Positions 9,001-18,279 of a stretch of 18,279 bases of DNA are shown in pieces. Under the pieces are notes generated by a model. That model was not told the DNA's origin and made no database searches. It worked only from the letters and a program-made list of their open reading frames with translations. Every line of letters begins with the position of its first letter. The first letter of the stretch is position 1. The DNA lies in IMG/VR virus record IMGVR_UViG_3300031278_000120; one strand, 5' to 3'. This DNA comes from a virus. The translations under genes and the position numbers were made by a program.

Positions 9001-9737
9001 GAGTGATGCCCCGGTCCGCCTGGACCTCCGTGCCCCGCCCCGTCGCCGCCCTGGTCGACATGAGGGGACCGGTCGGCCTGGCGCTGCACTGGCCCGGCCC
9101 CAAGGCCAGCGACCCGCCGATCGGCGACCCCGGAACCAAAGTCATCGCCCGGATCCTCGAAGCCGAACGTGACTACCACGTCACCGGGCACGGCTGGACC
9201 GACATTGCCTACGGCGCGGCCGTCGACCAGGCCGGCCGCGTCTGGGACTGCCGCGGACTCCGCTACCGCAGCGCCGCCAACGGAAACCAAACCGTCAACG
9301 CCACCCACGGCGCGGTCACCTGCCTGCTCGGGCCCCACGAGCAGCCCAGCCCAGCCATGGTCGACGCCATCCGGCAGCTGCGCCGCACACTGTGGCTGTC
9401 CCGGTTCCCGCGGGCGCTCGCGGTGGTCGGGCACTGTGATCTGCACTCCACCGACTGCCCGGGCCCCGCCGTCCGGACCATGATCAGGCAAGGGGTGTTC
9501 ACCGCCCCGGAACCGATCATCACCCCGCCCACCCCACCCCAGGAGGACCCCATGCTGATGGCCGGAGCCAAGGACACCGAGCGCGCGTTCCTGATCGTCG
9601 ACACCCCACAGGGGCCCCGCGCGGTCTACATCCCGGACCCGCAGCTGATCCGACCTGCGGACCGGATGATCGAGTTCCCCACGCAGGCCAGCCTGGCCAC
9701 CACCTATCCGATCATCTCCGCGGTCGTCACCCGGTGA
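8997..9737 (+). CDS. Endolysin: N-acetylmuramoyl-L-alanine amidase (Amidase_2/PGRP type) with a C-terminal domain of about 70 aa after a Pro-rich linker.
   Basis: Motifs LALHWPG, GWTDIAYGAAVDQAGRVWDCRG and VVGHCDLHSTDCPG match the Zn-ligand His/His/Cys pattern of PGRP and T7-lysozyme-type amidases. ATGA overlap with the holin. The 380-aa track ORF from 8595 overlaps upstream genes, so it was trimmed. Confidence 0.85.
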   Translation: MRVMPRSAWTSVPRPVAALVDMRGPVGLALHWPGPKASDPPIGDPGTKVIARILEAERDYHVTGHGWTDIAYGAAVDQAGRVWDCRGLRYRSAANGNQTVNATHGAVTCLLGPHEQPSPAMVDAIRQLRRTLWLSRFPRALAVVGHCDLHSTDCPGPAVRTMIRQGVFTAPEPIITPPTPPQEDPMLMAGAKDTERAFLIVDTPQGPRAVYIPDPQLIRPADRMIEFPTQASLATTYPIISAVVTR

Positions 9738-9949
9738 CCCGGTACGCCAAGGCCCTGATCGCCGCCGCGGGGGCCGGCCTCGAGGCGGCCGCCGAGGTGG
9801 CCTCCCACGCCGAGCTGCTGCCGGCCGCGTGGCAGCCGTGGGCGCGGCTGATCATCGCGGTGGCTGTCGTGGCCGGGGTGTACCAGGTCCCCAACACCCC
9901 GCCCGGAACGGACCCTGGCCCCGCCCGGGCGGGGCTGCACCGCCCCTAG
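9734..9949 (+). CDS. Membrane protein of the lysis cassette (71 aa). Could be a second holin or a spanin-like protein; unknown.
   Basis: GTGA overlap with the endolysin. GC3-rich. Has a hydrophobic WARLIIAVAVVAGVY segment. Confidence 0.55.
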   Translation: MTRYAKALIAAAGAGLEAAAEVASHAELLPAAWQPWARLIIAVAVVAGVYQVPNTPPGTDPGPARAGLHRP

Positions 9950-10047
9950 GCTGGCCGCAGTCGGGTGTCCCGGGCCCCCGTGGCGCGGGACCGGCCTGGG
10001 AAACGGGCCCGCCGCCCCCGGGGCACCCGACCGCACGCGCGCCACGA

Positions 10048-10076
10048 TTGACACGCCACCCGTGAAGGTCGACGCT
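10048..10076 (+). promoter_or_regulatory. Candidate early promoter: -35 TTGACA (10048-10053), 17-nt spacer, -10 GACGCT (10071-10076). ATG 10083 would then be at or near the transcript 5' end (leaderless).
   Basis: Perfect -35 hexamer. The -10 keeps the A2 and T6 of TANNNT. It lies in the largest intergenic gap, between the lysis and early arms, and no SD precedes the downstream gene. Confidence 0.4.
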
Positions 10077-10082
10077 GCGGGC

Positions 10083-10271
10083 ATGACGCACACGAGCCTC
10101 CTCAGCCCCAGCCAGGCCGGCAACCGCGCCGGCGTGCACGCCGAGACGATCCGCCGGTGGATCCGCCAGGGCCGCATCACCCCCGCCCGGCGATCACAAA
10201 CCGGGCGGATCCTCGTCGACTGGGCCGACGTCGCCCGCGTCGCCGGCCTGGACCCCGAGCACGACGAGTAG
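10083..10271 (+). CDS. Helix-turn-helix DNA-binding protein (excisionase/MerR-like HTH), 62 aa. GTG 10062 is an alternative start.
   Basis: LSPSQAGNRAGVHAETIRRWIRQGRI is a typical Xis/MerR-type HTH. Confidence 0.65.
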   Translation: MTHTSLLSPSQAGNRAGVHAETIRRWIRQGRITPARRSQTGRILVDWADVARVAGLDPEHDE

Positions 10272-10284
10272 GGGGGGCGCTGCC

Positions 10285-10932
10285 ATGTCCCTGGAGGCCC
10301 TCACGTGGGCCCTGTACGACGTGCGGCTGTCCGACGACACGGTGCCTGCCGAGCGGCACATAGACGCACTCGCCAGGCTCATCCTGATCGCGATCGCCGA
10401 CCAGGCCGACCGCCTCGGACGCAACGCGATCATCTCCCGCGCCGAGCTCGCCGAGATCACCGGACTGGGGGAGACCACCGTCGGATCCCGGCTGCGGCGG
10501 CTGCGCAACTCAGGGCTGATTACTCCCGGTGACGACGGGCAGGTCGCGCACCTGCGGTACCGGGCCGCGGTCTGGGACCTCGCGGTCCGGATCCGGCCCA
10601 TGCGTCCACGACAGAAGGGGGTCGCGACGCGACCCCCTGAACAGGGTCGAGGGGGTCGCGGGGGCGACCCCCTCCCGAGGGGGTCGCGAGGGGGTCGCGA
10701 GGGGGTCGCGAGGGGGTCGCGAGGGGGTCGCGCTGGCGACGACCCACCCCACCACCCCTCCACCCACACCACCCCTCCACCGCGCGCCGCCGGCAGGCAG
10801 CCGGCCTCGGCCGGCGGCGCGCCGCGTGTGGACGGGCCGGTACCGCAGGAGCTGCGCGCCGACCAGGCCCCACCGGAATGGCGGTCCACCCGGGATGCGC
10901 TGCGTGCCCGCCGCCGCGCATCCGGAGCGTGA
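10285..10932 (+). CDS. Winged-HTH protein (replication initiator or replisome-organizer-like N-terminal domain) with an Arg/Gly/Pro-rich C-terminal half that overlaps an iteron array.
   Basis: N-terminal LEALTWALYDV...ARLILIAIADQADRLGRNAIISRAELAEITGLGETTVGSRLRRLRNSGLI is a wHTH pattern. The reality of the C-terminal 115 aa or so is uncertain (low complexity, several frames open). Confidence 0.6.
   Translation: MSLEALTWALYDVRLSDDTVPAERHIDALARLILIAIADQADRLGRNAIISRAELAEITGLGETTVGSRLRRLRNSGLITPGDDGQVAHLRYRAAVWDLAVRIRPMRPRQKGVATRPPEQGRGGRGGDPLPRGSRGGREGVARGSRGGRAGDDPPHHPSTHTTPPPRAAGRQPASAGGAPRVDGPVPQELRADQAPPEWRSTRDALRARRRASGA
10617..10731. repeat. Iteron-like array. It comprises the palindrome GGGGGTCGCG-a-CGCGACCCCC (10617-10637), the inverted repeat GGGGGTCGC-gggg-GCGACCCCC (10651-10672), and 5 perfect tandem 11-bp repeats GAGGGGGTCGC (10677-10731). 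A sixth forward copy lies at 10649-10659.
   Basis: Read directly: 9 copies of the core GGGGGTCGC, 7 forward and 2 reverse. The 11-bp period is not a multiple of 3, so the periodicity is at the DNA level. Confidence 0.9.
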
Positions 10933-10949
10933 CAACCCCACCGAACCTC

Positions 10950-10978
10950 TTGTGCACGTCGTGTGAGGCGTGTAATGT
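10950..10978 (+). promoter_or_regulatory. Candidate sigma70-like promoter: -35 TTGTGC (10950-10955), 17-nt spacer, -10 TAATGT (10973-10978).
   Basis: Lies in a locally AT-richer intergenic stretch (tgtaatgtcaagattgcagttaggg), upstream of GGAGG (11011-11015) and GTG 11024. Confidence 0.45.
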
Positions 10979-11023
10979 CAAGATTGCAGTTAGGGACACC
11001 GACCGGACAGGGAGGACCGCACC

Positions 11024-11326
11024 GTGACACTCACCACCGCCGGCCTACCCGCCACCAGCCGGTGCACCCGCTGCGGGCAACCCATCGCGTGGGGCCTGAC
11101 CCTGCCCGCCCGCCGCCGCATGCCCATCGACCCACAGCGGCGACCCGACGACGACCACACCGCCAACATCCTCGTCAGCGGAGACCCCCACGGGTCGATC
11201 CTGTGCCGCGTCGAATCCCGCGCCGAACCCATCCGCGACGGCGAGCGCCGCTACATGCCCCACTGGGCCACCTGCCCAGCCACCAACTTCTACGACGTGG
11301 ACGGCACCTGGCGTCCCAGAAAGTGA
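11024..11326 (+). CDS. Zinc-ribbon-like hypothetical protein (100 aa).
   Basis: GGAGG lies 8 nt before GTG 11024. Contains CTRCGQP...HWATCP (CxxC...HxxxC). GC3-rich. Confidence 0.6.
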   Translation: MTLTTAGLPATSRCTRCGQPIAWGLTLPARRRMPIDPQRRPDDDHTANILVSGDPHGSILCRVESRAEPIRDGERRYMPHWATCPATNFYDVDGTWRPRK

Positions 11327-11334
11327 GCCCCACC

Positions 11335-11547
11335 ATGGCGACGGTGTTCACCACCGACGAGATCACGGGGATCCTCTACGCCTACGGCTACCCCGTCGCG
11401 GACATCCAGGCCATGATCGACAGCCTCATCGAGTCCGGCACCGAAATCCCCCTCGACGACGGCCCCCGCCAGTTCACGCCCGGCGAGCTGCTCGTCCTCG
11501 GCGACGCCCTGCGCGCCGCCCAGCACGACCGGGACCTCAGGGACTGA
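11335..11547 (+). CDS. Hypothetical protein (70 aa).
   Basis: ATG lies 8 nt after the upstream stop. Acidic, GC3-rich sequence MATVFTTDEITGILYAYGYPVADIQAMIDSLIESG... Only the last 70 codons of track ORF 10963..11547 look coding. Confidence 0.55.
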   Translation: MATVFTTDEITGILYAYGYPVADIQAMIDSLIESGTEIPLDDGPRQFTPGELLVLGDALRAAQHDRDLRD

Positions 11548-11549
11548 CC

Positions 11550-11690
11550 ATGTGGATCTATCGCCAGACCGAGGAGGCACTCTGGACGGTCGGCTTCTAC
11601 AGCCCGGATGGCACCTGGCATCCCGAAACCGACCACGCCAGCGCCGATGACGCCGCTGCCCGCACGGCCTGGCTCAACGGCAACCGCTGA
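11550..11690 (+). CDS. Small conserved-looking hypothetical protein (46 aa).
   Basis: Not in the ORF track because it is under 60 aa. MWIYRQTEEALWTVGFYSPDGTWHPETDHASADDAAARTAWLNGNR. The WTVGFY.PDG.W...D....A..R...LNG pattern recalls small proteins common in actinophages (from memory). ATG lies 2 nt after the upstream stop. Confidence 0.5.
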   Translation: MWIYRQTEEALWTVGFYSPDGTWHPETDHASADDAAARTAWLNGNR

Positions 11691-11693
11691 ACT

Positions 11694-11736
11694 GGGGGCT
11701 CCCACCGGCCGGACCGGATCCCCGGTGGGAGCCCCC
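11694..11736 (+). terminator. Perfect 15-bp GC-rich hairpin (GGGGGCTCCCACCGG, 13-nt loop, CCGGTGGGAGCCCCC). Candidate intrinsic terminator or attenuator with no U-tract.
   Basis: Read directly. Lies in the 74-nt gap right after the stop at 11690. Confidence 0.5.
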
Positions 11737-11764
11737 CACCATCCCACCCCAGGAAGGGACACCC

Positions 11765-12412
11765 TTGACCACCGACCTGCCCCCATACCTGCCGCTCGGC
11801 GAAGCAGCCGCCACCCTCACCGCCGAAGGCCTCGCCCCCGGCGAGATCGAACGCCAGATCGAGACCCAGCTGCGCCGCGGGCTGGTCCTCGACCAGCCCG
11901 AAGGCGCCACCCGCGACCGCCTCCTGATCACCTACGCCGAGCTCGGCGAAGTCCGCGCCCGGATCCGGTCCAACATGTGGGCCGGCCGCCGCGGCCTCAC
12001 CGACGACGACGCCCCCGACCTGCGCCCCCTGAGCACCAGTCCCCACGAGCTGCTCACCTACGCCTCGCTCGGCATGTTCATCGAACACCTGTACAGATCG
12101 CTTCACCGGGCCCGCCTGGCGGCCGGGCAGGTCACCATCGCGTCGACCGCGACCGCCCACAGCCACGGGACGGAGATCGAGCTCGTCGTCCACCCGTACA
12201 TCGGCGACAACCACGGCAGCGACACCAAGGCCGCCCCGCAGGACGTCCAGCGGCTCGCCGACGCCCTCGACGGCCAGATCGTCGGCGCGCGCACCGTAGG
12301 CGGCCCCAGCGGTAACCCCGCCGACCAGATCGTCAGCATCCGCGGGACACACGTCGGCCGCGCCTGGCTCGTCGAGGCCTACGTCACCGTCCCCGAAGAG
12401 CAGGAGAGCTGA
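11765..12412 (+). CDS. Hypothetical protein (215 aa).
   Basis: AGGAAGGGA lies 5 nt before TTG 11765, the first start in the ORF. GC3-rich with a non-repetitive protein-like composition. Confidence 0.65.
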   Translation: MTTDLPPYLPLGEAAATLTAEGLAPGEIERQIETQLRRGLVLDQPEGATRDRLLITYAELGEVRARIRSNMWAGRRGLTDDDAPDLRPLSTSPHELLTYASLGMFIEHLYRSLHRARLAAGQVTIASTATAHSHGTEIELVVHPYIGDNHGSDTKAAPQDVQRLADALDGQIVGARTVGGPSGNPADQIVSIRGTHVGRAWLVEAYVTVPEEQES

Positions 12413-12416
12413 CCCG

Positions 12417-12692
12417 ATGCCCCGCAAGGCCACCGTCGTCGACCATCGCACCGACGACCTCACCATCGGCCTGGTCAACGCCCCCCGCGGCACCTGGCAC
12501 ACCGGGCCCGCCCGCGCCCAACTCGCCGACCACCTACGCGCCGCCTACACCGGCGGTCAGACAATCCGCTCCCTCGCCACCGACTACGGCATGTCCTACG
12601 CCAAGGTCCACAAGCTGCTCACCACCGACATCCCCGGCACCAGCGTCCCGCGGCCCACACTGCGCCCGCGCGGCGGTTACCACCGTGCCTAG
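12417..12692 (+). CDS. Helix-turn-helix DNA-binding protein (91 aa).
   Basis: AGGAG lies 10 nt upstream. GQTIRSLATDYGMSYAKVHKLL is a classic HTH segment. Confidence 0.65.
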   Translation: MPRKATVVDHRTDDLTIGLVNAPRGTWHTGPARAQLADHLRAAYTGGQTIRSLATDYGMSYAKVHKLLTTDIPGTSVPRPTLRPRGGYHRA

Positions 12693-12777
12693 AACCCGCG
12701 CCGAGCTCCTCGCCCGGCCCGCCCTGATCCCTGCCCAACCACCCATGAACCCCTGGTTCACACCCGGAGCCGCCCAC

Positions 12778-13200
12778 ATGAAGATCAGAAGCATTCAGAT
12801 CCGGCCCACCGACCAGGTGTGCAGCCTCGACGGCGTAGACGTCCGCGTCTGGCACGGCCTGACCAACCAAGGGCAGGACTGCCTCGTCTTCGTCCACCGC
12901 ATCGCCATCGACGCGATGGACCAGACCGGCCTCGCCGAGGCCATCGGGCCCGAAATCCCGCCCCCAACCACGATCACGCCGGCACTGGAGGACATCTCAG
13001 ACCTGATCAAGCTGGGCGCCCAGCAACTCGACACGATCACCCATGTCGTCGATCCCGGCCACGACACGGTCCAGACACTGTGGTGCGACCGCACCCGCGA
13101 GCACCAGCGGGTTCTACCGGACACGAAGCTGTGTCCCGGCTGCGGCCAGCCATTGCGCACCCCCGATCAGCAGGCAACCGACCAGGCAGGCAACCGGTGA
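12778..13200 (+). CDS. Hypothetical protein with a C-terminal zinc-ribbon-like motif (140 aa). GTG 12685 is an alternative start.
   Basis: GGAG (12766-12769) lies 8 nt before ATG 12778. Contains WCDRTREH...CPGCG. The 12685-12777 extension has poorer GC3. Confidence 0.55.
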   Translation: MKIRSIQIRPTDQVCSLDGVDVRVWHGLTNQGQDCLVFVHRIAIDAMDQTGLAEAIGPEIPPPTTITPALEDISDLIKLGAQQLDTITHVVDPGHDTVQTLWCDRTREHQRVLPDTKLCPGCGQPLRTPDQQATDQAGNR

Positions 13201-13547
13201 GCGACCACATCGATTGGATATCGCTGCCGGACGGGCCGCTGCCGGAAAACCACCGGGCGAACATGCTCGAACGCCTCGCGGAAACCCGGCGGAATTCGCA
13301 TCCAGAACTGATCGCCGCCGCGGAAGAAGGCGCCGCATGGATGCGCCACCACCTCGCGCTCGATCTCATCGGCATCGACGACGACACCGTGATGAGGGTC
13401 GCCACCTCGGTTGCCGGAGTCACCACCCCGCTGCTCATCCGTCAGGGTGTACCGCTGAGGGCAATCGGGCTGATCCAGCTCATGCTCGACATGGCCATCC
13501 ACGAGCCCGGACCGGTAGCCGGCGGCCGCACCCCAGCCGACTGGTGA
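13197..13547 (+). CDS. Hypothetical protein (116 aa).
   Basis: GTGA overlap. VSDHIDWISLPDGPLPENHRANMLERLAETRRNSHPELIAAAEEGAAWMRHH... is protein-like and GC3-rich. The upstream part of track ORF 12819..13547 is an off-frame artefact. Confidence 0.6.
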   Translation: MSDHIDWISLPDGPLPENHRANMLERLAETRRNSHPELIAAAEEGAAWMRHHLALDLIGIDDDTVMRVATSVAGVTTPLLIRQGVPLRAIGLIQLMLDMAIHEPGPVAGGRTPADW

Positions 13548-13798
13548 GCAGGACGTGGCAGCAGGGCAGCACCCGGGCGTGGCGCCGCGTCCGGGCCGCC
13601 GTCCTCGACCGCGACCACCACCAATGCCAGATCCGCGCCCCCGGATGCACCGGCCACGCCGAACACGTCCACCACACCCACGGCCGCGAAACCACCGGCG
13701 ACGACCCCCGCCACCTCGTCGCCGCCTGCGCACACTGCAACCTCGCCATCGGCCAACCAACCCCAGACCCCCCACCCACCGGAGGCACCACATGGTGA
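13544..13798 (+). CDS. HNH endonuclease (84 aa).
   Basis: WRRVRAAVLDRDHHQCQIRAPGC...HVHHTHGRETTGDDPRHLVAACAHCNLAIG follows the HNH pattern (RD..C, H...N...H/CN). GTGA overlap. Located just upstream of the terminase genes. Confidence 0.85.
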   Translation: MSRTWQQGSTRAWRRVRAAVLDRDHHQCQIRAPGCTGHAEHVHHTHGRETTGDDPRHLVAACAHCNLAIGQPTPDPPPTGGTTW

Positions 13799-14103
13799 AC
13801 ACAACCTGCTGGATTGCGCGCGAGCAGATCCAGATACCCGACTGGTTCACCCCGCAGTACGGCGATTGCCCCGCCGGCATGGCCACCGCCGAGTACCCCT
13901 TCGGCTTCCTCTGCCTGCGGGACATCGGACACCCAGGCCGGCACATCGCCGTCGGCCCCCAGCTGCTCATAGCTGCCTGGCCGGGCAGCCACCAGCCGAC
14001 CCGAGCAGACCTGGACGCAACCGACCACGTCGTCTGTGACTGTCCCTGCACGCAGTGCGTGGACAGCCACTGTTCGTCCTGCCAGATGGCGGAGGGCGAC
14101 TGA
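13792..14103 (+). CDS. Cys-rich hypothetical protein (103 aa).
   Basis: GGAGG (13781-13785) lies 6 nt before ATG 13792. The C-terminal cluster is CDCPCTQCVDSHCSSC. Confidence 0.6.
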   Translation: MVNTTCWIAREQIQIPDWFTPQYGDCPAGMATAEYPFGFLCLRDIGHPGRHIAVGPQLLIAAWPGSHQPTRADLDATDHVVCDCPCTQCVDSHCSSCQMAEGD

Positions 14104-14149: not shown

Positions 14150-14199
14150 ACACCCCGGCCTGTCCGCTCTCTCCCCCCCGGCAGCGCAGAATTTCCCCC

Positions 14200-14505
14200 A
14201 TGGCCACCAGGCGGCCCAGCATCACCAGGGCACTAGCAAGATCACTCAGGGAGGCGCAGCTCACGCCTCGGGAGGAGGCATCGGCCACCCTGGCCCGCCG
14301 GCTGGCCATCGAGCTCGACGCAGCCGAGGAGCCGGCCGACATCGTGCGACTGGCCCGCAGCCTGAACGCCGTCCTCACGTCGCTGGGCATGAACCGGCAG
14401 CTGCGAACCCAGGTGGCCGCCGCTGGAGGTGCCACCGTCGATGACCCCGCCGCCGTCGCGCTCGCCGACCTCCGCGCTCGCCGTGGTGCCCACCCCGACG
14501 GGTGA
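14200..14505 (+). CDS. Terminase small subunit (101 aa).
   Basis: Located directly upstream of, and overlapping, the large terminase. Small, helical and Arg/Ala-rich (ATLARRLAIELDAAEEPADIVRLARSLNAVLTSLG), resembling actinophage small terminases. Confidence 0.6.
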   Translation: MATRRPSITRALARSLREAQLTPREEASATLARRLAIELDAAEEPADIVRLARSLNAVLTSLGMNRQLRTQVAAAGGATVDDPAAVALADLRARRGAHPDG

Positions 14506-16096
14506 CCTACCCCTCGGCTCGACCACCCCACGCCTCTACAGCAAGCCCCTGGTCACCGGGCCGCCCGGGCCCTGCGGCTGCGGCTGCGCCCTGACCGACC
14601 AGACGTCCTACGGCTACGACGTCGTCGCGTTCGCCGACCGGGTCCTCGGCGAGCCGCTCGACCCCTGGCAGCGGTGGCTGGCCATCCATGGCGGCGAGCT
14701 CCTGCCCGACGGCCGGCCACGCTGGCGCCGCGTCCTGGTCCTGGTCGCCAGGCAGAACGGCAAGACAACCCTCCTGCGCACCCTCGCCCTGTACTGGCTG
14801 TTCGTCGAACGCGTGAAGCTGATCTTCGGGGTCAGCACGAACCTCGACTACGCCCGGGAGGCCTGGGAATCGTGCGTCCAGCGCGCCGAGGCCCACCGGC
14901 TGTTCAAACCGCTGATCCCTCGCCGCGGCGGGATCCGCCGCGTCAACGGCGAGCAGACCCTCACCACCGCCGAGGGCTGCCGCTACCGGATCGGCGCGTC
15001 CAACCGGAAAGGCGGCCGGTCCCTGTCGATCGACCGGCTGATCGCCGACGAACTGCGCGAGCAGACCACGTGGGTGTCGTACAACGCCGCGTACAACGCG
15101 CTGCAGGCCCGCCGCCACGGGCAGGCCTGGTTCATCACCAACCAGGGCGACGATTCCTCGGTCGTGCTCAACTCCCTGCGCCGCGACGCGCTCAAGTCCG
15201 CCGACCCCCGGCTGGGCATCTTCGAGTGGTCCGGGCCCGACGGCTGCGACCTCGACGACCCCCAGGCGCTCGCCGCCGCCAACCCGAACCTGGGCCGGCG
15301 GATCGCCTGGGAGGACCTGCTCGGTCCGGCCCGCGCGGCGATGGCCGCCGAGGCCGCCGGCGAGCCCGAGGCCGCCATCGGATTCAGAACCGAGGTCCTC
15401 TGCCAACGGGTCGTCCTCCTCGACCCCGCCATCGACCCCGCCTCATGGGCGCGGTGCCTGGACCCCGGGTCCCTCGCCGACCTGCGGACCCGCCTGGCCG
15501 TCGTCATCGACGCCGCCCCCGACGGCGGCCACGTCACCGCCTACGCCGCCGCCGTCCTCGACGACGGCCGGGTCCGCGTCGACCCCGTGCAGGCCTGGTC
15601 CGGCCGCGGCTGCATCGACACCGCCGAACGGGCCCTGCCCGACCTGCTCGCCCAGGTGCGCCCGCGCAGCCTCGGGTGGTTCCCCACCGGCCCCGGCGCG
15701 GCCCTGGCCGCCAAGCTGCGCGACCGCAAGCAACGCGGCTGGCCCCCACCCGGGGTCAAGATCGAAGAGATCCGCGCCGAGACCGCGGCGGTGTGCATGG
15801 GCTTCGCCGGGCTCGTCGCGGCCGGGCAGATCGCCCACTCCGGGGACGCCCTGCTCGACGCCCACGTCGCGCTCGCCGAGCGCCACCACCGCCCGGGCGA
15901 CACGTGGACGTTCTCCCGCAAAGGCCAGGTCGGCCACGTCGACGCCCTCTACGCCGCGGCCGGCGCCGCCCACCTGGCGCGCACCCTGCCGCCGCCGCCC
16001 GACCCGATCGTCATCACCGCCCGACGCCCCCGTTGCAGCGGGGGGCCGTCTCAGCTGTGCCAGGCCGAAGGGATCCCCACAGAGGAGGGGGCATGA
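14441..16096 (+). CDS. Terminase large subunit (about 551 aa). Alternative starts are GTG 14429, 14483 and 14486.
   Basis: Walker A-like ARQNGKTT (GKT codons at 14758-14766) and Walker B-like LIADEL. DPWQRW motif. Size and position fit. GGAGG (14425-14429) lies 11 nt before ATG 14441. Confidence 0.9.
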   Translation: MTPPPSRSPTSALAVVPTPTGDLPLGSTTPRLYSKPLVTGPPGPCGCGCALTDQTSYGYDVVAFADRVLGEPLDPWQRWLAIHGGELLPDGRPRWRRVLVLVARQNGKTTLLRTLALYWLFVERVKLIFGVSTNLDYAREAWESCVQRAEAHRLFKPLIPRRGGIRRVNGEQTLTTAEGCRYRIGASNRKGGRSLSIDRLIADELREQTTWVSYNAAYNALQARRHGQAWFITNQGDDSSVVLNSLRRDALKSADPRLGIFEWSGPDGCDLDDPQALAAANPNLGRRIAWEDLLGPARAAMAAEAAGEPEAAIGFRTEVLCQRVVLLDPAIDPASWARCLDPGSLADLRTRLAVVIDAAPDGGHVTAYAAAVLDDGRVRVDPVQAWSGRGCIDTAERALPDLLAQVRPRSLGWFPTGPGAALAAKLRDRKQRGWPPPGVKIEEIRAETAAVCMGFAGLVAAGQIAHSGDALLDAHVALAERHHRPGDTWTFSRKGQVGHVDALYAAAGAAHLARTLPPPPDPIVITARRPRCSGGPSQLCQAEGIPTEEGA

Positions 16097-16446: not shown

Positions 16447-18279
16447 ATGGGGCTGCTGAGCCGGCTGCGGTTCGCCAGGGACGTGTTCACCCGCGGCGAT
16501 CCCCGGCGGCAGGAGTTCAGCTGGGCGGTCGGGCACACCCCGTGGCCGGGATCCTGGCAGCACCTCGGGCAGCCGGTGTGGACGGCCGGGTCGGTGTCCC
16601 GCGCCGACGCCCTGCAGGTCCCCTCGGTGCTGCGCGGGCGCAACCTGCTGTGCTCCATCGCCGCCCTGCCGCTGCAGCTGCTCGACCCCGAGCGGGTCCG
16701 GATCCGCACCGGGGACTCCGCGGCCCGGCTGCTCACCCAGATCGACCCGAACACCGCCAACGTGACGACCATCGCGCAGACCATCGAAGACCTTGTCTTC
16801 GAGTCGGTCTCCTGGTGGGAGATCCTCGGGTTCGGCTGGGACGGCTACCCGGTGTCGGCCCGCCACGTCGACACGAGCGTCGTCACCCTCAACCCGCCGC
16901 CCGGGTACCGGATGCAGACCCTGCCGAGCGGCCTGGACCCCAACGGTGTCGTCTGGATCGAAGGCCGGCCCGTCCCCTACCAGCGGGTGATCAGGTTCGA
17001 CTCCCCGAACCCGCCGCTACTGCTGGCCGGCGCCCGCGCCATCCGACGCGCCGCCAAGCTCGCCGCCGCAGCCGAGATGTACGCCGACGACCCCGCCCCC
17101 CGCGGCTACTGGTACGCCCCCGACAGCGTCGACCCGGACCCGGACAAGGTCGCGGAGTTCCTCGACGCCTATGCGGCCGCCCGCCGCGACGGCGTCGAGG
17201 CGTACATGGGTGGGGGACTGCAGCGCAAGTCCGAGGACGTGATGTCCCCGGTCGACCTGCAGCTGGCCGAACTGCAGCAGCAGTCCGACCGGGAGATCGC
17301 CAACCTGATGGGGTTGGCCCCCTCTGACCTCGGGGTCAACTTGCAGGGGTCGGCGATGACCTACGCCAACGTCGTCGACCGGCGCACCGACCGGATCAAC
17401 GACACCTTCGCGCTGTTCATGCGTGCGACCACCGACCGGCTGTCGATGCCCGACATCACCAAACGCGGCTACAGCGTGCGGTTCGACCTCGACGACTACC
17501 TGAAGGCCGACCCGAAGACCAGGTGGGAGAACCACGCCACCGCGATCGAGCGGGGCGTGCTGTCGATCCCGGAGGTCCGCGAGGAGGAGAACCTCCCCGC
17601 CATCCCCGTCGAGCCGGCCATGCCCCCGGCGCGCCCGCCCGTCCCCGCCCCCGGAGGCACCATGAGCCGCGGCACCACCAGTCAGCACTTCGCCGGCACC
17701 GCCGGTGACCCCCTCACCTTCGATGCGCCGCCGGCCGGCACCCACTCCGCCACCTTCGCCGCCGACCCCGGCCGCCGCCGCGTCTCCGGGCTCCTGCTGC
17801 CCTACGGCGTCGTCGGCCGCAACCGTGCCGGCCGCTGGCGGTTCGCCGCCGGCTCCGTGACCTGGGACCGACAGGCGGTCTCCCGGATCAAGCTCGACCG
17901 CGAGCACGACCGCAGCCAGCTGCTCGGCGCGGCCACCGAAGTCCGCTCCAGCTCCACCGGCCTATGGTCCGAGTTCAAGATCGCCCGCGGGGCCAGTCAG
18001 GACGAGGCGCTCGCGCTCGCCGAGGACGGCGTCCTGGACGGCTTCTCCCCGGAGGTCGAGCTCATCGAGTGGGGGCCCGACCCGGCCGACCCGACCGTCA
18101 ACCTGGTCACCCAGGCCCTGCTCGTGCGCGCGGCACTGACCGCCGACCCCGCTTTCACCGATGCCCGGGTCGCCGCCGTCGCGGCGTCCGCGAACGAAGG
18201 GATCACCATGCGCTGCACGTCGTGCGGGTATGACCATGCGGCCGGCACGCCGTGCCCGGTCCAGCTCAACAACCCCACC
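16447..18279 (+). CDS. N-terminal part of the wrap-around ORF: portal protein (codons 1 to about 385), a Pro-rich linker, and an HK97-type (S78) prohead protease (codons about 406-575). There is no stop codon; it continues in frame into nt 2..1489.
   Basis: I translated all 611 codons by hand and found no stop, which is why the ORF track omits it. Portal-like N-terminus: SRADALQVPSVLRGRNLLCSIAALPLQLL. The protease pattern is LLLPYGVVGRN...IKLDREHD (His codon at 17905) ...DGVLDGFSPEVE (Ser codon at 18046, 47 aa after the His) ...ALLVRAALTADPAF. ATG 16447 is the first start after an in-frame TAG at 16405. Confidence 0.85.
   Translation, partial: MGLLSRLRFARDVFTRGDPRRQEFSWAVGHTPWPGSWQHLGQPVWTAGSVSRADALQVPSVLRGRNLLCSIAALPLQLLDPERVRIRTGDSAARLLTQIDPNTANVTTIAQTIEDLVFESVSWWEILGFGWDGYPVSARHVDTSVVTLNPPPGYRMQTLPSGLDPNGVVWIEGRPVPYQRVIRFDSPNPPLLLAGARAIRRAAKLAAAAEMYADDPAPRGYWYAPDSVDPDPDKVAEFLDAYAAARRDGVEAYMGGGLQRKSEDVMSPVDLQLAELQQQSDREIANLMGLAPSDLGVNLQGSAMTYANVVDRRTDRINDTFALFMRATTDRLSMPDITKRGYSVRFDLDDYLKADPKTRWENHATAIERGVLSIPEVREEENLPAIPVEPAMPPARPPVPAPGGTMSRGTTSQHFAGTAGDPLTFDAPPAGTHSATFAADPGRRRVSGLLLPYGVVGRNRAGRWRFAAGSVTWDRQAVSRIKLDREHDRSQLLGAATEVRSSSTGLWSEFKIARGASQDEALALAEDGVLDGFSPEVELIEWGPDPADPTVNLVTQALLVRAALTADPAFTDARVAAVAASANEGITMRCTSCGYDHAAGTPCPVQLNNPT
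18153..18279. repeat. Second copy of the 127-nt terminal overlap (identical to nt 1-127).
   Basis: Direct comparison of the window ends. Confidence 0.95.

Follow-up and report, generated by a model that had tools for sequence, protein, structure and literature searches.

A probable replication origin inside the O-like initiator gene of an 18-kb high-GC siphophage

The repeat array and the gene that contains it

We examined the 18,279-nt stretch of DNA held as IMG/VR virus record IMGVR_UViG_3300031278_000120 (the whole of which is called the window here), with emphasis on a cluster of short repeats lying within a gene for a winged-helix protein of replication-initiator type. The first and the last 127 nt of the window coincide (1-127 = 18153-18279), and the window is therefore a circularly closed assembly of ~18,152 bp. 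Its content of guanine plus cytosine (GC) is 71.6%, and the phage is a ~18.15-kb high-GC siphophage. The gene and the parts of the array are as follows.

10285..10932, + strand: putative initiator gene, 215 amino acids (aa), with the candidate origin elements inside it; called from the open reading frame (ORF) and its PHROG replication-initiation matches
10285..10599, + strand: coding region of the N-terminal winged helix-turn-helix (HTH), residues 1-105, the presumed iteron-binding domain
10616..10638, no strand: inverted pair 1 (sites 1 and 2), AGGGGGTCGCG-A-CGCGACCCCCT, a presumed dimer site
10650..10673, no strand: inverted pair 2 (sites 3 and 4), arms around GGGG, with a counterpart in the relative L057 that has another spacer
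10677..10732, + strand: five perfect head-to-tail 11-bp iterons, GAGGGGGTCGC, found with Tandem Repeats Finder (TRF)
10873..10923, + strand: coding region of a C-terminal basic helix of 17 residues (197-213), predicted by AlphaFold2 (AF2)

We observed that the word GGGGGTCGC has nine exact copies in the window, and that all of them fall within 10617-10731. When the whole window was shuffled with its dinucleotides preserved (n=200), the word occurred 1.45 +/- 1.22 times, and 0/200 shuffles reached nine. A first-pass annotation, made from the letters alone, had described nine copies in 115 bp, laid out as one palindrome, one inverted pair with a 4-nt spacer and five 11-bp units; the count, location and arrangement were all confirmed. 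The repeat word that it gave is present as claimed, but the true site is longer, at 10-11 nt, with AGGGGGTCGCG exact in eight copies and differing at one position in the ninth. Matches to AGGGGGTCGCG with at most two mismatches were at chance level in the DNA beyond the array (25 found against 27 expected).

The word, which can also be written AGGGGGTCGC(G), is arranged as two inverted pairs and five contiguous 11-bp direct repeats, so that only four of the nine sites lie in inverted pairs. The first pair holds a 21-nt palindrome (10617-10637, GGGGGTCGCG-A-CGCGACCCCC) with two 10-nt arms and one central base, and the core of the second (10651-10672) is GGGGGTCGC-GGGG-GCGACCCCC. The tandem block was scored by TRF at period 11 with 5.2 copies and 100% match (10676-10732), its core copies spanning 10679-10731. 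A copy number of five was seen in two assemblies, this window and contig Ga0307417_10000406 (L055, 97.4% identical); in three short-k Logan contigs of this phage the assembly stops within the tandem block, and these hence give no copy number. The exact iteron dimer was absent from IMG/VR.

The ORF runs through the array (peptide ...PRGSRGGREGVARGSRGGRAGDD...), which occupies codons 111-149 of the 215, just after the winged-helix domain. The tandem units begin in frames 2,1,0,2,1 and encode RGSRGGREGVARGSRGGRAG; the cycling of the peptide through the frames, and the peptide itself, were thus as first described. Residues 106-194 are predicted by AF2 to be a disordered linker, and the array falls in the DNA for its first part. 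Since the 11-bp period cycles through all three frames and the linker is predicted to be disordered, selection at the level of the DNA is indicated.

The protein was modelled with a single domain, a winged helix at residues 1-100, with a typical helix/strand pattern and a predicted local distance difference test score (pLDDT) of ~80-94. All seven of its PHROG matches are to replication initiation families, O-like or DnaD-like, among them phrog_1032 (E 2.5e-11) and phrog_391, 'replication initiation O-like' (E 2.7e-5). An exhaustive HMMER search found 262 homologues in a representative library. A family profile of 30 sequences aligned with the O protein of the Shiga toxin (Stx) phage phi24B at an hhalign probability of 97.2% (E 4.7e-11), and with gp24 of Arthrobacter phage Jessica at 97.4%. 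These alignments indicate that the N-terminal domain is homologous to that of phi24B O, which is annotated as a replication protein. The family member P0034 matches 230 cultured-phage records, in which the genes are annotated 'replication initiation protein', 'DNA replication protein O' or 'replisome organizer'. In several annotated phages the homologues stand at the O position, in a cII-O-P-like order beside P, helicase or primase/helicase genes. The PHROG matches, the phi24B O alignment and the O position of the homologues all uphold the earlier description of the gene as one of initiator type.

Not all searches reached these relatives. Neither megablast of 9500-12500 nor tblastn of the domain gave a match among cultured phages, and a word-index protein search with the domain alone and a profile scan of IMG/VR were equally without result; the broad family alignment was too diverse for use in scanning.

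The array among relatives

In L055, all nine sites and the five tandem units are kept, and no substitution falls within any 9-mer. All five substitutions in codons 1-110 of the gene are synonymous; in codons 111-215, three of the five are non-synonymous and two synonymous.

L057 is a syntenic 15.7-kb phage in which the domain is 63% identical. It carries exactly the same word, in two inverted pairs and four identical tandem units. The site sequences were 100% conserved while the spacers and flanks had diverged, which answers the comparison of repeats with flanks that the first-pass annotation had proposed. The core-to-core spacings are 13/21/13 in L057 and 13/21/14 in the window, and the 13-nt core spacing of inverted pair 1 is kept despite a different centre sequence. 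The initiator ORF is open in both L055 and L057. Although the window has five units and L057 four, both genes leave the array in the same reading frame, which shows that the ORF continues past the array and that the array is embedded in the gene.

More distant homologues keep the layout but change the word. In L058 (56% identical) and L059 (48%) the words are of GGGGGTCTC type, related but not identical, and form an inverted pair and then four units that recur every 11 bp. L056, a homologue in an Alloscardovia metagenome-assembled genome (39% identical), has a palindrome, AGGGGTGAAA-ATAT-TTCACCCCT, followed by four units of GGGGTGAA type, again every 11 bp, and by an AT-rich tract. L001 has its own repeats followed by an AT-rich tract, Arthrobacter phage Abidatro has its own repeats, and the phi24B O gene has three palindromic iterons and an AT-rich tract at the same place. 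A repeat cluster (>=3 copies of an 8-mer) was found at codons ~88-165 in 14 of the 15 genes examined, a count that includes lambda O as an analogue, and such 8-mer clusters were almost absent from the flanking DNA of short loci. Thus the layout is conserved across relatives and the repeated word changes by lineage. A further 50 loci, found through their terminases, have a different non-structural region and hence were of no help for comparing the array.

The recognition helix and the iteron seemed to vary together, TTVG occurring with GTCGC and S/A-T-I/V-K with GTCTC. This covariation comes from six sequences, is confounded with phylogeny, and for P0003 and P0006 uses words inferred from the encoded peptide only; we regard it as suggestive but anecdotal.

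These comparisons also bear on whether the repeats have any function as DNA, or are low-complexity sequence, generated by slippage, that encodes a disordered Arg/Gly linker. The tandem units are 100% identical, as they would be after recent slippage, their number differs (five in the window, four in L057), the segment is predicted to be disordered, and non-synonymous substitutions outnumber synonymous ones in codons 111-215 against L055 (three to two). Slippage, however, cannot yield the same word inverted with a conserved spacing, and the 11-nt unit gives no consistent peptide repeat. The same layout is found with different words across lineages, and the position of the array is kept in 14 of the 15 family genes. 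We therefore give slippage without a DNA-level role hardly any credence.

Elements 3' of the iterons and the origin reading

Three features lie at the 3' side of the iterons.

10741..10779, + strand: G-free, C/A-rich tract of 39 nt directly 3' of the iterons, a candidate unwinding or strand-asymmetry element
10783..10823, no strand: GC-rich palindrome with the potential for a hairpin or cruciform (folded as DNA, -27 kcal/mol with z -3.3)
10919..10998, no strand: 80-nt stretch with the joint-lowest GC of the genome (55%, tied with 2494-2573)

The G fraction at the tract was 0.08-0.11. At the corresponding place in L059, L058 and Jessica, the DNA is poor in G and made of A/T-ending codons. GC at third codon positions (GC3) in the tract was 0.08-0.5 in L059 and L058, against ~0.9 in the rest of the gene, and 0.25-0.33 in Jessica, against ~0.67. 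Because these are rare codons, their use in the relatives points to selection on the DNA for a region that is easily opened and strand-asymmetric. The bottom strand of 10741-10779 has blocks of three to four G (GGTGGAGGGGTGGTGTGGGTGGAGGGGTGGTGGGGTGGG) that fit a G-quadruplex motif, and this motif might be relevant to the opening of a GC-rich origin. The palindrome was observed at the same position in L057 (z -4.1), L059 (z -2.2) and L058 (z -1.6). The low-GC stretch covers the stop codon together with the intergenic gap (10933-11023) and begins ~190 nt 3' of the array; it is a candidate for an alternative unwinding site and/or for a promoter of the downstream genes.

Together, these comparisons have led us to the view, which we hold at roughly 75% probability, that the array is a cis-acting replication origin lying in lambdoid style inside the phage's own O-like initiator gene. 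This reading is favoured because syntenic and distant relatives keep the sites or the layout while the spacers or the words diverge. In the mechanism that we propose, the winged-helix domain would bind the inverted pairs as dimers, and the 11-bp repeats head to tail, with one protomer per helical turn on one face of the DNA. The resulting O-some-like nucleoprotein complex would distort the DNA and open either the G-free tract or the low-GC stretch that lies ~190 bp away on the downstream side. Recruitment of the host helicase and replisome would follow, possibly through the conserved C-terminal helix. Recruitment from the host is proposed because no helicase, loader, primase or polymerase could be recognised among the phage genes. 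The basic helix that AF2 predicts is a possible host-replisome contact, and an Arg-rich C-terminal motif is found in most close relatives (P0002, P0005, P0012; also P0004, P0007, P0011, P0013).

Several observations weigh against an origin at this site. In this phage the G-free tract is still 75-78% GC, and for that reason it is no obvious unwinding element. The GC skew has no inflection at the array; with every gene on the same strand, it falls monotonically from one end of the genome to the other, so that the skew check proposed in the first-pass annotation is uninformative here. The window and L057 share a ~66-nt block without a single difference, which may in part stem from recent recombination and not from site-by-site selection. 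Pfam Phage_rep_O and Rep_3 gave no match for the initiator. The family profile had no detectable similarity to lambda O (hhalign probability 0.09); direct homology to lambda O was rejected on this result, and the protein is thus grouped with O-like initiators in a broader sense, outside the family of lambda O proper (Pfam Phage_rep_O). As for the PHROG and RefSeq names, these were themselves assigned by homology. The 215-aa protein has no C-terminal domain, unlike the longer family members, and no helicase loader was identified in the genome, for which reasons the recruitment step is purely our inference. Lastly, Foldseek against the PDB returned only generic ArsR/MarR-type winged-helix repressors, all at E > 0.01.

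Such repressor neighbours would fit a transcription regulator, with the array as an operator or roadblock that autoregulates the gene or gates read-through into the downstream genes, and no origin at all. Pfam and NCBIfam likewise see only generic regulator-type HTH families in the protein (HTH_24, MarR, ArsR; HTH_24 in Pfam at E 1.9e-6), and SEA-PHAGES names the homologues only 'HTH DNA binding domain protein'. In iteron plasmids, moreover, inverted half-sites serve autorepression. The sites, however, lie ~330 nt inside the ORF, and scans for consensus (sigma-70) promoters and terminators gave nothing near the array. No further sites were found elsewhere in the genome. All PHROG matches are initiators, the annotated homologues stand at the O position beside helicase/P genes, and the order of iterons, G-poor or AT-rich tract and palindrome is that of an origin. 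A regulator with its operator is, in our assessment, unlikely.

The origin reading finds its nearest parallel in lambda. The lambda record annotates four iterons at 39034-39118, that is, codons 117-145 of O, so that the comparison with lambda O/ori made in the first-pass annotation is accurate in position (codons 111-149 here). ori-lambda lies within O and consists of four iterons and an adjacent AT-rich region, and small in-frame ori deletions can leave O functional in trans (PMC6022878). Both origins would thus sit within the gene of the initiator itself, immediately 3' of the part for the N-terminal DNA-binding domain, with multiple iterons followed by a compositionally distinct tract, and in lambda the segment encoded by ori is a tolerant linker (PMC6022878). 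The differences are also clear. The lambda iterons are 18-19-bp units with internal symmetry, ~20-24 bp apart, whereas here there are two inverted pairs and five contiguous 11-bp direct repeats; the adjacent tract here is G-free but GC-rich, not AT-rich; and the 215-aa protein has no C-terminal P-binding domain and is followed by no P, helicase or primase gene.

Two further systems offer analogies only. In the initiators of iteron plasmids (RepA of pPS10, RepE of F, pi of R6K), inverted repeats bind dimers and iterons bind monomers. These systems share with the present locus a winged-helix protein, direct-repeat iterons beside an unwinding element (here a candidate one), and a word that also occurs inverted. 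They differ in having two winged-helix domains and 17-22-bp iterons outside the rep gene; here there is one winged-helix domain by AF2, the 11-bp units are inside the gene, and Rep_3 is not matched. Single winged-helix domains of the PhoB/OmpR type bind contiguous ~11-bp direct repeats head to tail, which is a structural precedent for one protomer per 11-bp unit. These proteins are transcription activators of another winged-helix subfamily, and no homology to them is claimed.

A stronger form of the origin reading is that the 215-aa protein and ~200 bp of its own coding DNA are a complete one-gene replicon for high-GC Actinobacteria. The O-like initiator may have lost its C-terminal domain and may recruit host DnaB/DciA directly through the 17-residue basic helix. 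The GC-rich origin may be opened by the G-free tract, with its G-quadruplex-prone other strand, and by the cruciform palindrome, in place of an AT-rich element. We consider this stronger form rather doubtful. The first-pass annotation had suggested that the initiator and its iterons might be the entire replication module of the phage. Its statement that polymerase, primase and helicase genes are lacking was borne out with Pfam, PHROGs and NCBIfam, which detected none of these in the genome and no loader or partition gene either. The entire module, however, goes too far as a claim, as eight small ORFs without assigned function lie downstream. In these ORFs (11024-14103), no hidden replication function was seen with Pfam, PHROGs, NCBIfam or PDB sequences.

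The surrounding genome and the wider family

All genes of the phage are on the + strand. Apart from the initiator gene, the genome is organised as follows.

14200-16096, + strand: terS-like gene (the terS candidate, 14200-14505) and terL
after terL, + strand: structural genes, in the order major-head-like-region protein, major tail protein, tape measure, tail proteins
between the tail genes and the MerR/excisionase-like gene, + strand: amidase, then a holin-like ORF
10083..10271, + strand: MerR/excisionase-like HTH gene, directly upstream of the winged-helix gene
between 11024 and 14103, + strand: eight small ORFs of 46-215 aa without assigned function
13544-13798, + strand: HNH endonuclease

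The MerR/excisionase-like gene is kept as a neighbour in L057, in the P0003 contig and in the cluster AN Arthrobacter phages. It was considered as an obligate binder of the array and ruled out, since the homologues in L058 and L059 have no such gene upstream of them. Between this gene and the initiator start codon is a poly-G run (10272-10278; 7 G here, 6 G in L055), likely the ribosome-binding region. Two genes downstream of the initiator, 12417-12692 encodes a 91-aa HTH_58 protein (Pfam E 1.5e-13), which is also kept as a neighbour in L057 and the P0003 contig. In NCBIfam this protein matches the CRISPR repeat-binding protein Cbp1, but weakly (E 7e-5, well short of the cut-off). Within the small ORF 11335-11547, ~102 nt (11400-11501) are missing from the close relatives L055 and L053, and owing to this segment the ORF has 70 aa here and 34 aa in L053. 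Elsewhere in the window, a tandem repeat with a 12-nt unit, CCCCAGCCGCAG, was found at 146-310 (~14 copies; also scored at periods 18, 24 and 42), inside the ORF 56-1489 (477 aa) of the major-head-like region.

Two independent contigs of the same phage have termini close to each other, L055 ending at 14153 and L002 beginning at 14160. This suggests a physical genome end of cos type just upstream of terS and beside the HNH gene. As these contig ends map to ~14155, the genome end is 3.4 kb away from the array. In many independent contigs of related small phages in IMG/VR, found through the terminase (L003-L006, L010, L011, L014), terL starts ~190-410 nt from the contig end, which is consistent with defined genome termini beside the terminase genes across the group.

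The position of the ends is relevant to the possibility that the array is a partition (centromere-like) site or a packaging-recognition site, bound by the winged-helix protein or by the MerR-like protein. The parC site of plasmid R1 has sets of five 11-bp repeats, a resemblance that counts in favour of partition. No integrase was found in the genome, so that a plasmid prophage lifestyle is conceivable, and the upstream MerR-like protein has a weak match to the small-terminase PHROG phrog_57 (E 2e-4). On the other hand, Pfam, PHROGs and NCBIfam revealed nothing like ParA, ParM or ParB anywhere in the 18 kb, and in place of a ribbon-helix-helix adaptor beside a ParM/ParA motor gene, as in ParR/parC, there are a winged-helix and a MerR-like HTH protein. 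Since the genome ends map beside the HNH, terS and terL genes, where there is a separate terS candidate, the array does not appear to be a packaging site. The MerR-like gene, moreover, is absent next to the L058 and L059 arrays. We consider a partition or packaging role very improbable.

Among cultured genomes, those of the cluster AN Arthrobacter siphophages (Decurrovirus; Jessica 15.6 kb) come closest in organisation. They share the order of structural genes, lysis genes, MerR-like HTH gene, winged-helix gene and small ORFs, with HNH at the right end. Jessica gp24 (L062, KT355473.1, 2501-3169) also has inverted and direct repeats and then a G-poor, AT-rich tract, at codons ~110-156. Its repeat words and geometry are different: the inverted repeats are ACGACACC/GGTGTCGT, and the two 25-bp direct repeats each contain a TACCCCCGGGGGGGTA palindrome. 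Jessica is also lower in GC, and the C-terminal part of gp24 is Cys-rich. In a non-exhaustive literature search, we found no paper describing embedded repeats in actinophages.

The design itself is most likely one already known, the lambda-O-style embedded origin, which on the present comparisons would occur here in a minimal, stripped-down form. Several points are unusual. The 11-bp iterons are contiguous, the initiator ends in a short conserved helix in place of a C-terminal domain, none of helicase, loader, primase and polymerase can be recognised, and at the place where one would expect an unwinding element there is a G-free tract that is not AT-rich. The family thereby poses the question of how, with neither a loader nor a C-terminal domain, the helicase of the host is brought in.

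Cluster AN phages (15.5 kb) have been described as lacking DNA metabolism genes (PMC5513430). If the origin reading is right, these tiny 15-18-kb siphophages would gain an assignable initiator and origin. The assignment would extend to a wider set of uncultured relatives, and their replication would become experimentally tractable. The initiator-plus-origin cassette of ~750 bp could serve as a compact vector replicon in high-GC Actinobacteria. Since winged-helix domains are combined in this family with words of 9-11 bp that vary, its origins may be located by sequence alone, and the pairs of domain and word would be a natural data set for protein-DNA recognition codes.

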